From a virus (taxonomy: Duplodnaviria > Caudoviricetes): 64,000 bases of DNA. Location: IMG/VR virus record IMGVR_UViG_3300028531_000001, positions 12,865 through 76,864 of that record; one strand, given 5' to 3'. A program made the translations under genes and the position numbers. Shown here piece by piece: positions 9,013 through 52,871 of this stretch (the first letter of the stretch is position 1; each line of letters begins with the position of its first letter). Under the pieces are notes generated by a model. It was not told the origin of the DNA, did not search any database, and worked only from the letters and a program-made list of their open reading frames with translations.

Positions 9013-9250
9013 AGCCCCAGACTTAATCTCTGCGCACGAAGTTTCCAAGTCTAGCGTCCCATCTAAAAGCCGGATTGTCACACTTCCTCACCAAGCCATC
9101 TTGTTCTTGCCGTCGCCGGTGAGCTTTTGATACATTCTCTCGGTGCGATGCGGGGACCTTGCTCACCGGCCCGACGTGAATCATTCGCGGGCAGAGGCCG
9201 GATCTTTCCCGCGTCGCGTGGAATCAACATTTGTTCCAGAAGAGGTGAGA

Positions 9251-9796
9251 ATGGGTCACCCCCTGCTCGCGGGCGAGGTGAGGCCGCGGCCACACTCGGA
9301 CCTGCCGCTGAGGCCGACGGTGCGTTGGATGACCGCCGAGCACATCCGGGCGGCGGCGGAGATCGACTTCGCGGGCACGCCCTGGGACTGGACGGGGCCC
9401 CGCATGGCCGAGTTCCTGGCCCGACGCGGCTGCATGGGCCGGGTGGCCGAATCGGCCGGCTCGGCGGTCGGGTTCGCGTTGTACGAGGCGAGACGGCCGA
9501 CGATCGAGGTGCACAAGCTGGTCGTGGACGCCGAATACCGCGGCCTGGGCGTCGGGGAGGCGTTGGTCCGGGCCCTCGCGGCGAAGCTCGACGGGGCGAC
9601 CTGGGGGCGGCTGCTGATCAACGTGCGCGAGACCAACCTGGACGGGCAGCTGTTCCTGCGCGAGCAGGGATTCCTGGGGCGGCGGGTGATCCGGGGCCAC
9701 TTCCCCGACTCGGGCGAGGACGCGTTCGAGATGGTGCTGACGGCCGACCGGGCGAGGCTGGCCCGGCCGGGGTTCCTGGGGCGGAGGCCCGCATGA
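9251..9796 (+). CDS. GNAT acetyltransferase, RimI-like
   Basis: VVDAEYRGLGVGEALV acetyl-CoA motif A, VRETNLDGQLFLREQGF motif B, GEDAFEM ending typical of RimI-like proteins. Confidence 0.8.
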   Translation: MGHPLLAGEVRPRPHSDLPLRPTVRWMTAEHIRAAAEIDFAGTPWDWTGPRMAEFLARRGCMGRVAESAGSAVGFALYEARRPTIEVHKLVVDAEYRGLGVGEALVRALAAKLDGATWGRLLINVRETNLDGQLFLREQGFLGRRVIRGHFPDSGEDAFEMVLTADRARLARPGFLGRRPA

Positions 9797-10626
9797 GGCA
9801 GTATCTCGACCTCCTGCGGCACGTCATGGACCACGGCGAGGACCAGCCGTCGCGTTCCGTCCTGGCCAGCACGGGCGAGCGGCCGTCCACGCGGAGCGTC
9901 TTCGGCCATCAGTGCCGCCACGACCTACGCGACGGCTTCCCGATCGTCACGACGAAGTACGTCCCGTTCCGCCAGGTCGCCGCGGAGCTGGCGTGGTTCC
10001 TGAGCGGATCGACCAACGTCGCCCCGCTCCACGAATCGGGCGTCCGCATCTGGGACGCCTGGGCGACGGAGGGCGGCGACCTCGGGCCCATCTACGGCGC
10101 GTTGTGGCGGAACTGGCAGGGCCGGGGCGGGCGTGTCGACCAGATCGCGGAACTGGCGGCGGGAATCCGGGCGGTGGCCGACGACCCGCACGACTCGCGG
10201 GCGAGGCGGCTGGTCCTCACGTCCTGGGACCCGTCGGCCATGCGGCAGGTCAAAGGCCCGTCGGGATGCCACACGCTCTGCCAGTTCTACGTCAGCAAAG
10301 GCCGGCTGTCCTGCCACCTCTACCAGCGGTCGGCGGACCTGTTCCTGGGCGTCCCCTGGAACATCGCGTGCTACGCCCTGCTGACGCACCTGATGGCGAG
10401 CCTCTCGGGGCTCGAGCCGTTCGAGTTCATCCACTCGTTCGGCGACGCCCACATCTACGCGAACCACCTCGATCAGGTGGCCGAGCAACTCACGCGCGAC
10501 CCCCTGCCCTTGCCGACGCTGAAGATCGACTCCCGCTTCGGCTCGATCGACCGGTTCGACCCGTCGTGGGTCTCACTCGATAGTTATGCGTCCCATCCCA
10601 GGCTCTCGGGCGAGGTGGCTATATGA
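9793..10626 (+). CDS. thyA: Thymidylate synthase
   Basis: ELAWFLSG, IWDAWA, DLGPIYG, catalytic GCH, YQRSADLFLGVPWN, GDAHIY.NH; ATG at 9793 overlapping the GNAT stop. Confidence 0.97.
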   Translation: MRQYLDLLRHVMDHGEDQPSRSVLASTGERPSTRSVFGHQCRHDLRDGFPIVTTKYVPFRQVAAELAWFLSGSTNVAPLHESGVRIWDAWATEGGDLGPIYGALWRNWQGRGGRVDQIAELAAGIRAVADDPHDSRARRLVLTSWDPSAMRQVKGPSGCHTLCQFYVSKGRLSCHLYQRSADLFLGVPWNIACYALLTHLMASLSGLEPFEFIHSFGDAHIYANHLDQVAEQLTRDPLPLPTLKIDSRFGSIDRFDPSWVSLDSYASHPRLSGEVAI

Positions 10627-11165
10627 TCGTCTGCGCGATCGTGGCGATGGACCGCAACGGACTGATCGGGGCCGGCGGGAAGCTCCCCTGGCACCTGCCG
10701 GGCGACTTGAAGCGGTTCCGGGCCCTGACGATGGGCTGCCCGGTCATCATGGGCCGGAAGACGTTCTGCTCGCTCGGGAAGCCGCTGGATGGCCGGGAGA
10801 ACATCGTCCTGTCGCGGTCGGGACCGAAGATCGGCAAGGGCTTCCGGGTCTCCCCGTCGATCGAAGACGCGATCGGCTACCACGAATATTGGGGTACGCC
10901 TCGTGTCTGGATCATCGGCGGGGCCGAGGTCTACGCGGCAACCTGCCACCTGTGGGACGAACTGGCGATCACGAGCGTCGCTGGAGACTACGCGGGGGAC
11001 GCCCACTTCCCGCTAGACGCGGTCGACGCGATCGGCTGGAAGCTCGTGAAGCACGCCGGCTTCGTTGTCGGCGGCTTGCCCTTCCACACGGCGAGCAAGT
11101 TCCGCCGGATCGAGCCGGGCGAGGCCCCCGTCTCGATCAACCCCGCCATCCCGCTCGGATCTTGA
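10623..11165 (+). CDS. folA: Dihydrofolate reductase
   Basis: IVAMDRNGLIG..GKLPWHLPGDLKRFRALTMG.PVIMGRKTF.SLGKPL.GRENIVLSR; IIGGAEVY. Confidence 0.95.
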   Translation: MIVCAIVAMDRNGLIGAGGKLPWHLPGDLKRFRALTMGCPVIMGRKTFCSLGKPLDGRENIVLSRSGPKIGKGFRVSPSIEDAIGYHEYWGTPRVWIIGGAEVYAATCHLWDELAITSVAGDYAGDAHFPLDAVDAIGWKLVKHAGFVVGGLPFHTASKFRRIEPGEAPVSINPAIPLGS

Positions 11166-11205
11166 GCCCGCCCTGTCATCAACTTGTCACCGGGAAGTCA
11201 TCGCC

Positions 11206-11604
11206 ATGTCACTGAACACGCCCGAGCCCGCGCCTATCCCGATCGCCGGCCAGCCGGTCTGGCCGCTGGTGATCGCGGACATGAAGGAATACGCCGGCCA
11301 GTTCTCGGAAGGGACCAAGACCGCCGAGGTCGCGTGCCTCATCGCCCTGGACGCATGCGAGCGGGATTCGATCGGCGCCAAGAAGTACGGCACCCCGCTC
11401 TGCGTTGGCGACGGCCGGAACGCCCTCGTGGACGCCTATCAGGAATCGCTCGATCTGATAGTCTATCTCCGTAAAGAGATCGAGGAGTGCCAGGGCGCAT
11501 CCTTAGCCGATGACGACGGCTTGGCGGTCGCTTACGAGGACGCGATGAGTGCTGCCCTGCTCCTCAAGACGATCCTGCTCCGGCGCGAAGCCAAGCCCGC
11601 CTGA
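11206..11604 (+). CDS. Putative all-alpha (MazG/HisE-like) nucleotide pyrophosphohydrolase
   Basis: RD.IG.KKYGTPL....R.ALVDAYQESLDLIVYL pattern common in phage nucleotide-metabolism loci; family assignment is an inference. Confidence 0.5.
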   Translation: MSLNTPEPAPIPIAGQPVWPLVIADMKEYAGQFSEGTKTAEVACLIALDACERDSIGAKKYGTPLCVGDGRNALVDAYQESLDLIVYLRKEIEECQGASLADDDGLAVAYEDAMSAALLLKTILLRREAKPA

Positions 11605-11624
11605 CTCCCCTGCCCTGCCCGGCC

Positions 11625-51687: not shown

Positions 51688-51693
51688 TGGATT

Positions 51694-51765
51694 GCCAGGG
51701 AAGAGTGCCGGTTGCTCGCCAGTCTCATAAACTGGAGGAAGTGGGTTCGATTCCCACCCCTGACA
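51694..51765 (+). tRNA. tRNA with CAT anticodon (elongator Met or Ile2), no encoded CCA
   Basis: Acceptor GCCAGGG/CCCTGAC (one C-A mismatch), D arm GAGT/GCTC, anticodon arm CCAGT-CTCATAA-ACTGG, T arm GTGGG-TTCGATT-CCCAC; lacks the three G-C pairs of initiator tRNA. Confidence 0.88.
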
Positions 51766-52055
51766 CTCGACCGTAGGTCAACCCTTCGGTTCAAGACACA
51801 CCTTAAAAGCGACGCGTCCCCTTCTTGCGTTGAGAATGGGGAACCGGATTTCCCGGGGATCGGATGCGAGCGGCCACCCTGAACTCACTCGACACCTGAA
51901 AACACCCGAAGCCTGATTGCTCGCGGAAATCAACGGCTCGACTTCGATGCAATACACGACCGGCCCGCCTTCCACGGACCGTCGAATTCGATACCCCCTC
52001 AGTCGCTTCGGTGGCTGAGCAGCAGAGCCGCCCTCGGGTGGCTCTTGCTATTTCG
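51766..52055 (+). ncRNA. Candidate structured RNA co-transcribed with the tRNA
   Basis: ORF-poor; helices CGCGTCC/GGATGCG and AGCC-TGATT/AATCA-GGCT, a UUCG-capped hairpin and a terminal hairpin. Confidence 0.45.
52021..52055 (+). terminator. Terminator hairpin ending the tRNA unit, convergent with 52062-52775
   Basis: AGCAGAGCCGCC-CTCG-GGTGGCTCTTGCT followed by ATTTC. Confidence 0.6.
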
Positions 52056-52061
52056 AAGTGC

Positions 52062-52775
52062 TCACCCCGAACACCGCAGGCAAAACACCCCCGCCCGCCT
52101 GACCCCGCCGCACCCAGGGCAAGCCTTCGCCTTGACCGGGTACTCCAGCACCACGCCCCGCTCCCGCATCTGGCCCCACCGCACGTCCCGCCGGAAGCAC
52201 TTCCGCTCCGTCCCCACCTGTCGATCGTCGAAGTACCACGCCATCCCGCCGCCGATCAGGTTGGTGTGTGCCGGCACGAACCGGGCTCTCGCCAGTCGCT
52301 CGGCCTCGTCCCACGCGTCACGCTCGGCCTGACCGATGGCCTCGTCCTCGCGGTAGAACTCGGCCTCATCCTCGGCCGTGACGGCGATCGTGGCGGCATC
52401 GGCGACGTCGGACGGGAATGAGTCGAGGAAGTCCCACGCGTTGTCGGCCACCAGGTCCGTGGCCACGACCTCCCTGCCCCGCCCCGCCCGCTCCCTCGCC
52501 GGCCTGCCCTCGCCCTCCTTCACCCAGCGGCCCCCCTGCATCGAGAGCCCCAGCGACGACACGGCGGCGACCCCCATCACGACCGAGGGGCCGTCCGGGC
52601 ACTCGTCCCACCGCTGGGCCCAGCCCGACGACTCGGCCGCGTCGATCACCGATTCCAGGTAGGCCGGGGACCACCCCGTCGCCCTCGCCACGTCGGAGAC
52701 CAGGGGCACGATCGGCAGGCCCAACAAGGCGTCCGCGAACTGGGCAATCTCGGCCTCGGTGACGGTCGCGTGCAT
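52062..52775 (-). CDS. Hypothetical protein with N-terminal wHTH-like region and C-terminal CxxC..CxxC Zn ribbon
   Basis: SDVARATGWSPAYLESVIDAAESSGW; CPGCGG...CLRCSG. Confidence 0.6.
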   Translation of the reverse strand: MHATVTEAEIAQFADALLGLPIVPLVSDVARATGWSPAYLESVIDAAESSGWAQRWDECPDGPSVVMGVAAVSSLGLSMQGGRWVKEGEGRPARERAGRGREVVATDLVADNAWDFLDSFPSDVADAATIAVTAEDEAEFYREDEAIGQAERDAWDEAERLARARFVPAHTNLIGGGMAWYFDDRQVGTERKCFRRDVRWGQMRERGVVLEYPVKAKACPGCGGVRRAGVFCLRCSG

Positions 52776-52852
52776 GGCTGGCCCCGGAAATGTGACAACC
52801 CGGATTTTTCTTGTCCCGACCCATCAACGACTTGCGGCGGATGACCCATCGC

Positions 52853-52871
52853 AATGTGAGGAGATGATACC
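52853..52871 (+). promoter_or_regulatory. Dispersed motif copy AATGTGAGGAGATGATACC at the start of the late operon
   Basis: Intergenic between 52775 (minus) and 52917 (plus). Confidence 0.65.

Follow-up and report, generated by a model that had tools for sequence, protein, structure and literature searches.

What is the role of a word of about 20 bases that recurs, outside coding sequence, across the genome of a tailed phage? The phage is represented by the IMG/VR virus record IMGVR_UViG_3300028531_000001 (Duplodnaviria; Caudoviricetes). The window analyzed here is a stretch of 64,000 nucleotides corresponding to bases 12865-76864 of the single 76,864-base record; positions are counted from the first base of the window, and the whole record (76.8 kb) was also scanned. 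An earlier interpretation of the window (the sequence-only reading) had described a dispersed 19-bp intergenic motif at promoters and proposed an operator network, possibly controlled by an ArsR-type master switch, with a family of upstream open reading frame (uORF) starts as the alternative. The dispersed motif is real. From the sequence patterns described below, we give an even chance to the proposal that the word is a set of double-stranded DNA operators for one phage-encoded repressor, spread over the heads of the lytic blocks.

The word can be written as GAGGTGAG-RAR-ATG-WWW-CCT. A degenerate pattern of it, allowing at most three mismatches, was matched nine times compared with 0.19 expected, and at most two matches occurred in any of 100 shuffles. 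A position-weight matrix was built from the motif sites and scanned over the entire 76,864-base genome, returning ten strong copies at 23.8-31.5 bits, of which seven were forward (20218, 21100, 29069, 29169, 37760, 46060, and 52853) and three reversed (20127, 29008, and 42348). The next best site scored 15.5 bits, a gap that is partly circular because the matrix was derived from the same ten copies; a matrix-independent core (GGTGAK-N4-TG-NWN-C) gave 12 matches compared with 0.6 expected. On a gene map based on codon usage, all ten strong copies fell outside coding sequence, with copy 21100 overlapping the start of the ArsR1 gene, and the matrix scan was empty both in the first 12.8 kb and across the late structural genes. 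The pattern count, the matrix scan, and the non-coding placement thus bear out the dispersed intergenic motif described earlier, which proved to be one base longer than first given, as seven of the ten copies carry a T at position 20. Most of the copies listed in the sequence-only reading were recovered, as were the 26-bp inverted repeats at 37760 and 42175 and the placement of copies where the early, replication, ArsR2, and late blocks begin. Two listed copies were demoted: 42175-42193 is only a weak member of the family (10.4 bits, with ATC replacing ATG), and the supposed weak copy at 9076-9094 (13.3 bits) corresponds to the ribosome site of the XRE gene together with its GTG start.

The word belongs to the phage and not to its surroundings. 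The host is likely a planctomycete of the family Isosphaeraceae; full-length homologues of gene 20301-21068 were found in the genome collection only in Singulisphaera sp. PoT (two loci) and Paludisphaera soli. With at most two mismatches, the motif occurred seven times in the 76.8 kb of the phage and zero and one times in two Isosphaeraceae genomes (10.5 and 8 Mb; 18.5 Mb in total), which corresponds to an approximately 1700-fold higher density in the phage. Even the bare arrangement GAGGTGA-N4-ATG had just 19 and 5 occurrences in these two genomes. The sequence-only reading had allowed that the motif might be no more frequent than host Shine-Dalgarno (SD) sequences would predict, and it was far commoner in the phage. 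A generic host start context was rejected on these 0 and 1 matches in 18.5 Mb, because the word is nearly absent from the Isosphaeraceae genomes. No comparable motif cluster was found in 1.74 Mb of other phage and metagenome loci, and repeated SD-like words of other phage loci proved to be ordinary ribosome sites or tandem repeats. Near-identical relatives appeared among protein clusters; the relatives retrieved from viral, metagenome, and genome collections were distant and lacked the word.

Predicted promoters were then called across the whole genome by one uniform rule (at least 8 of 12 matches to TTGACA-17-TATAAT, a -10 box starting with TA, an intergenic position, and the plus strand). 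Seven promoter-like sites passed, and three of them (20179-20207, 29031-29059, and 42309-42337) were followed by a motif copy 9-10 nt past the -10 box (20218, 29069, and 42348, respectively), the third of which is reversed relative to transcription. By a rough hand estimate from the scan counts, approximately 0.03 such cases would be expected by chance. The promoters at 20179 and 29031 had been proposed before; they are moderate matches (8/12) and were recovered by the uniform scan. As each copy starts 9-10 nt past the -10 box, it is predicted to cover approximately +3 to +22, a position typical of classic repressors. At each of the three predicted promoters there is an upstream partner of opposite orientation or palindromic form (20127, 29008, and 42174-42201). 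None of the three reversed copies has a convincing promoter on its own strand, and 29008 and 42348 also lack a downstream gene. Promoter phasing at either orientation fits an operator network.

In such a network, a protein bound to the copies at the three host-type promoters would block RNA polymerase, and its binding could be stabilized by a loop to the second, opposite or palindromic copy 50-160 bp upstream. The copies in short operon gaps (21100, 29169, and 46060) may act as roadblocks or auxiliary sites, and the replication and late blocks would be closed through the copies at 37760 and 52853, respectively. Release of the repressor, for example by the antirepressor Ant, would open all blocks together. 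The word may resemble a ribosome start site because it descends from the beginning of an autoregulated gene (ArsR1), or because the site is used again on RNA. We placed the operator proposal first because it accommodates every copy, including the reversed copies and the palindromic copy without ATG, as well as the extra conserved bases, the dyad, and the phasing.

The same reversed copies could instead be read as antisense partners acting in cis or in trans. A rightward transcript through them would carry an anti-SD sequence (…CUCACCUC) that pairs with the forward copies and hides their starts in read-through transcripts. Complementary pairs were indeed present at 29009-29030/29165-29186 (22 nt, 86%), 20132-20144/20219-20231 (13 nt, 92%), and 42174-42200/42341-42367 (27 nt, 74%), and in two of the three pairs the match runs a few bases past the motif. 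However, opposite-orientation copies of one word are complementary by construction, the leader folds were no more stable than shuffled controls, and the fixed distance to the -10 boxes is left unexplained; we consider this explanation highly improbable.

A further possibility is that the word has no regulatory role of its own: it could be a boundary repeat, a centromere (parS) or iteron site, or a passenger cassette of promoter and ribosome site that recombination copied along with gene modules. The copies are located at module boundaries, and dispersed centromere sites can occur in plasmid prophages, as in N15. Against this, the flanks of the copies share nothing beyond approximately 21 nt, which argues against recent cassette duplication, and the promoter phasing implies a function. 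A role as parS or iterons was rejected on the basis of better candidates for ParB and Rep sites at 17285-17404 and 19453-19518 and the lack of a canonical parS in the genome. Overall, a word without regulatory function appears very unlikely.

Table 1. Motif copies, predicted promoters, candidate binding proteins, and plasmid-type genes, with positions in the window
Feature	Position	Strand	Remarks
Motif copy, 26.6 bits	20127-20145	-	34 nt 5' of the -35 box of promoter 20179
Promoter-like site TTGCTG-17-TATACT	20179-20207	+	-10 box ends 10 nt before motif 20218
Motif copy, 28.2 bits	20218-20236	+	approximately +3 to +22 of predicted promoter 20179; ATG opens an 8-codon frame
Motif copy, 31.5 bits, perfect match	21100-21118	+	in the 42-nt gap after gene 20301-21068
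Motif copy, 30.9 bits, perfect match	29008-29026	-	ends 4 nt 5' of the -35 box of promoter 29031
Promoter-like site TTGACG-17-TACCTT	29031-29059	+	spacer palindrome GATCGC-CT-GCGATC; -10 box ends 9 nt before motif 29069
Motif copy, 23.8 bits, AAGGTGAT variant	29069-29087	+	approximately +3 to +21 of predicted promoter 29031
Motif copy, 26.6 bits	29169-29187	+	after terminator-like hairpin; TGA of its 9-codon frame overlaps the gene 29206 ATG (ATGA)
Motif copy, 24.0 bits, GTG at start position	37760-37783	+	continues into 8-bp inverted repeat GGTGAGGT/ACCTCACC
Perfect palindrome CGAGGTGAG-N10-CTCACCTCG (9-10-9)	42174-42201		weak motif member, ATC at start position
ArsR2 promoter-like site TTGACA-17-TATTGA	42309-42337	+	-10 box ends 10 nt before reversed motif 42348
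Motif copy, 29.1 bits, perfect match	42348-42366	-	approximately +3 to +22 of predicted ArsR2 promoter; 20 nt before ArsR2 ATG 42387
Motif copy, 25.9 bits	46060-46078	+	66-nt gap between co-directional genes, 12 nt past stop codon
Motif copy, 26.1 bits	52853-52871	+	between divergent gene 52062-52775 (-) and the first late-operon gene
XRE/GNAT immunity gap	9087-9282		GGTGAG core 5 times in 200 nt, densest cluster in the genome
XRE/CI-type helix-turn-helix protein	8683-9081	-	candidate binder
Second XRE-type helix-turn-helix protein, 136 aa	11999-12409	-	candidate binder; adjoins the gap 11605-11998
ArsR1, remote ArsR/SmtB-family winged-helix protein	21111-21443	+	candidate binder
Winged-helix protein	gene 37809		candidate binder
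ArsR2, clear ArsR/SmtB-family protein	42387-42692	+	candidate binder; HTH_5 E=6e-14
Ant-type antirepressor	4972-5820	-	
ParA	17480-18271		
ParB	18271-19176		
Rep-like initiator	19040-19882	-	

The individual sites (Table 1) differ in their surroundings. Copy 20127 overlaps a leftward promoter-like site (TTGAGA-17-GATCAT) facing the rep gene, and the gene that follows copy 20218 begins at 20301 without an SD sequence of its own. ArsR1 probably starts at the in-frame ATG at 21111, within copy 21100; some gene callers picked another ATG at codon 10. The 31-codon frame opened by copy 29069 crosses a terminator-like hairpin with a T-rich tail (29137-29153) and stops at a TGA within copy 29169; as a side observation, this layout of frame, hairpin, and stop in the next copy (29080-29175) resembles an attenuator. 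Copy 37760 lies 30 nt before the winged-helix gene, ahead of the replication-O-like gene and DnaB. The palindrome 42174-42201 is approximately 130 bp 5' of the predicted ArsR2 promoter. The ArsR2 leader also contains a 6-codon frame (ATG GAT CGG AAA TCG ATA TGA; 42370-42390) whose stop overlaps the ArsR2 ATG (ATGA), and ArsR2 lacks its own SD sequence. No promoter was found for copy 46060, whose 16-codon frame ends 7 nt beyond ATG 46114, and copy 52853 overlaps the predicted start point of a leftward promoter (TGGACA-16-AATACT).

The anatomy of the word bears on a different kind of function. The 3' tail of the 16S rRNA of Singulisphaera, a likely host relative, ends in GGATCACCTCCTTTCT, and therefore GAGGTGA is a perfect 7-base SD sequence. 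Downstream come a purine-rich spacer with a constant length of 4 bases, a start triplet (ATG in nine copies, GTG in one), and an A/T-rich triplet. The word could thus be an RNA-level start cassette, like the SAS elements of Cluster K mycobacteriophages, that provides strong ribosome loading and a short leader frame; its role would be ribosome loading or coupling to the next gene, 5'-end protection, or recognition by a translational regulator of the phage, either a protein or an RNA. This explanation accounts for the start-site likeness directly and fits five copies well. The SD core exactly complements the 16S tail of the likely host relative, and the distance from the SD to the start is fixed and within the range of real phage genes. 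The start position holds ATG or GTG in all strong copies and TTG in the weak copy 9116, and copy 29069, which lacks G1, has T8 in exchange and so retains seven paired bases. Copy 21100 is the likely start of ArsR1, two copies are at predicted transcript 5' ends, and three mini-frames (29169, 46060, and 52853) terminate at the following start or no more than 7 nt from it. The word shares with SAS an SD core, conserved bases that cannot pair, a location in the non-structural half of the genome, absence from hosts, and rare reversed copies (PMC3203893).

Other properties are difficult to reconcile with a start cassette. A real gene is opened by only one of the ten copies (21100), whereas SAS are found 3-7 nt 5' of genuine start codons; the remaining nine copies open frames of 5-101 codons without coding composition. 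The real genes of the phage mostly use GGAG, GGAGG, or GAGG sites at variable spacing, and plain ribosome sites of real genes were rejected on these grounds. Neither a promoter nor a gene is available for the three reversed copies, one of which (42348) would lie antisense within the ArsR2 leader. In copy 52853, AATG stands in place of the GAGG core, while GTGAG...ATGATACC is kept. At 37760, an 8-bp hairpin would sequester the site, whose frame would extend 267 nt into the following gene in a different reading frame. The stop-start overlaps of the mini-frames of 29169, 46060, and 52853 were at chance level, given that an ATGA start terminates one frame in three anyway, and coupling of the mini-frames to the following gene was rejected as not significant.

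Several conserved bases have no role in rRNA pairing or as a start codon (G8, W16, C18, C19, and T20), C18 being present in 10/10 copies. G8 is mismatched, facing an A in the 16S tail of the likely host relative, and G8, C18, and T20 are left unexplained by a start cassette. The third codon is CCT in five copies, and since CCT is rare in this high-G+C genome, its conservation is at the nucleotide level and not at the peptide level, which weakens the earlier idea of M-x-P mini-peptides. A weak outer dyad (GAGGT-N11-ACCTC) runs across the strong copies, and positions 17-21 match ACCTC at 3.3 of 5 positions on average compared with 1.3 expected (hand count). No conserved RNA hairpin was supported in the leaders (z-scores from -1.5 to +1.7), and no compensatory changes between copies or arms were seen by eye. 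A sigma-70 promoter inside the motif (extended -10, TGn) was also rejected, as most copies lack A2 or T6. The uORF alternative of the sequence-only reading stays compatible with the forward copies and fails for the three reversed ones. Taken together, an RNA-level start cassette is the main rival of the operator proposal and is considered unlikely.

The start-site likeness is nevertheless the one cost of the operator proposal, and a number of observations weigh against that proposal. The word is a textbook start site (a 7-nt 16S complement, a fixed 4-nt spacer, ATG/GTG, and an A/T-rich second codon), and copy 21100 truly starts, or extends, ArsR1; a pure operator would resemble a start site only through descent or luck. 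Seven of the ten copies are co-oriented with the genes, and three mini-frames end on or near the next gene start, though not significantly. The three predicted promoters have only 8-9 of 12 matches, and copies 21100, 29169, and 46060 have no nearby promoter. We judged the cost of the likeness to be moderate because other dispersed words of G+C-rich temperate phages also hold SD-like cores (Cluster K SAS, PMC3203893). A second reason is that one copy is the start region of a regulator gene, a possible ancestor of the word. The L5 stoperator and the phiC31 inverted repeats are likewise said to hold SD-like cores.

The two functions could also be combined, the same 20 bases being read twice, as a repressor operator on DNA and then as a ribosome-loading site at the 5' end of the derepressed transcripts. 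If this were true, one word would be shared by the repressor and the 30S subunit, which would account for the perfect start-site form of an operator, and the mini-frame would prime translation of the block. We regard this double use as distinctly unlikely.

If the word is an operator set, the next question is which protein binds it. Five encoded helix-turn-helix proteins are candidates (Table 1). ArsR/SmtB operators are imperfect 12-2-12 inverted repeats and are autoregulatory, while a genome-wide regulon is atypical of this family. In agreement with autoregulation, copies lie over the predicted start point of the ArsR2 promoter (42348), with the 26-bp palindrome upstream, and over the ArsR1 start (21100), as expected for an autoregulated repressor. 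In contrast to ArsR/SmtB operators, the ten strong copies are not of the 12-2-12 type: such a palindrome was found only at 42174-42201 and partly at 37760-37783 and is absent from the other strong copies, which mostly match the second arm CTCACCTC at approximately 2-3 of 8 positions (hand count). The structures nearest to ArsR2 among those solved are SqrR/HlyU/BigR-type proteins. ArsR2 lacks the sensing cysteine pair and is probably not a two-cysteine thiol or metal sensor, because it has a single cysteine. The regions 5' of 79 ArsR2 homologues (approximately 55% identity) showed no enrichment of GGTGAG or CTCACC; these homologues are cellular genes with a different N-terminus. No homologues of ArsR1 were found outside this phage lineage.

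A CI-like XRE repressor is at least as plausible a binder as ArsR, because the GGTGAG core clusters most densely in the XRE/GNAT immunity gap; this density was never attained in 200 simulated genomes. An extra weak copy of the word (9116-9134), in which TTG occupies the start position, is also found in the gap. So is a perfect 10-bp inverted repeat (GCCGGTGAGC/GCTCACCGGC at 9115-9124/9161-9170, with 36 nt between the arms), which overlaps the promoter-like sequence TTGCCG-18-TACATT; the -10 element of this sequence is of the extended (TG) type. An Ant antirepressor is the usual partner of a master repressor, and the phage has both a CI-like XRE protein and Ant. Of the earlier claim of an ArsR master switch, the operator-network part was upheld by the promoter phasing and the placement at block heads; the link to ArsR in particular was not, given that the strong copies are not 12-2-12 repeats and that GGTGAG is densest at XRE.

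Among the known systems, the C1 repressor of phage P1 offers a close architectural comparison. In P1, C1 has 22 dispersed asymmetric 17-bp operators, through which replication and late functions are controlled (PMC8546580, citing Lobocka 2004). Like P1, the phage studied here is a plasmid prophage with a dispersed word at the heads of replication and late-control functions, an antirepressor branch (in P1 under antisense RNA control), and some sites in inverted or overlapping pairs (PMC8546580). The two differ in that the words have no sequence likeness, no C1 homologue was recognized in the present phage, and the copies number 22 and 10 (strong), respectively. In addition, the P1 word is unlike a ribosome start site, and binding was shown in P1, whereas the word described here is a proposed operator. 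As in dispersed operator systems, there is a many-copy non-coding word with copies overlapping predicted early promoters (three of seven).

For L5-type repressors, the asymmetric sites number more than 20 and are located at promoters as well as within short gaps (PMC9283540). The present phage resembles L5 and Cluster A phages (gp71-type) in having an asymmetric many-copy word at promoters and in short operon gaps with an orientation bias along transcription (PMC9283540), and L5 and the phage are both G+C-rich and temperate. The L5 word is different in being 13 bp long and recognized by a two-domain monomer repressor, and no such protein was recognized in the phage. Reversal of the word abolishes the elongation block in L5, whereas three of the ten copies here are reversed, beside promoters, and a weak dyad is present. 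The near-uniform orientation of L5 stoperators is therefore not seen, the split being seven forward and three reversed.

The SAS/ESAS elements of Cluster K resemble the word in their SD core with unpairable conserved bases, their location in the non-structural part of the genome, their near-absence from hosts, and their mostly single direction with rare reversed copies, some with inverted repeats (PMC3203893). They are unlike it in lying just before real start codons, whereas the word has its own ATG at a fixed distance and opens a real gene in one of ten copies, and the two share no sequence likeness. The function of SAS is still open in Cluster K mycobacteriophages (PMC12699233). Separately, in the Singulisphaera sp. 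PoT chromosome, the two 20-kb loci with a homologue of gene 20301 each carry 4-8 copies of a 16-bp palindrome, GGTGCCCATGGGCACC, which is another lineage-specific dispersed word in a planctomycete mobile element.

The remaining features describe the genome in which the word is set. The overall picture is that of a plasmid-type prophage, with ParA/ParB, Rep, and Ant among the encoded genes. The G+C content is approximately 65%, reaching 80-95% at third codon positions, and the called genes are nearly all on the plus strand from 20.3 kb to the window end. The phage also encodes thymidylate synthase, DHFR, the DNA polymerase III beta clamp, and a YqaJ exonuclease, and a replication-O-like protein and DnaB are encoded downstream of the winged-helix gene 37809. 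Inteins with a LAGLIDADG endonuclease domain were observed in both ribonucleotide reductase and DnaB helicase (32752-35826 and 39427-42030). Just 5' of parA, a 16-bp palindrome (TTTGCAA-s-TTGCAAA) is present in three copies 46-49 bp apart (17285-17404), which is probably a partition site or par operator. Iteron-like direct repeats (CGATTTCACCCC; 3-4 copies, approximately 24 bp apart) at 19453-19518, within the Rep-like frame, may mark the plasmid origin. Comparison of the genome with Rfam identified a tRNA as the only known RNA family. This tRNA, with a CAT anticodon, lies at 51694-51766 on the plus strand behind a near-consensus promoter at 51660-51687 (TTGACA-16-TATATT), and it is assigned to elongator Met or Ile2 (AUA-reading) because the three G-C pairs found in the anticodon stem of initiator tRNAs are missing. 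Three strong motif copies and the weak copy 9116 have ATA as their second codon.

To our knowledge, almost nothing is known of gene control in phages of Planctomycetes. The operator proposal offers a compact regulon of ten sites, three at predicted promoters, with five candidate binders and an architecture that parallels P1. It also bears on an open question in mycobacteriophages, namely the purpose of dispersed repeats that contain an SD sequence (SAS). In the word described here, ribosome-site likeness and promoter phasing are united in one element, so that simple mutations could separate function at the DNA level from function at the RNA level.

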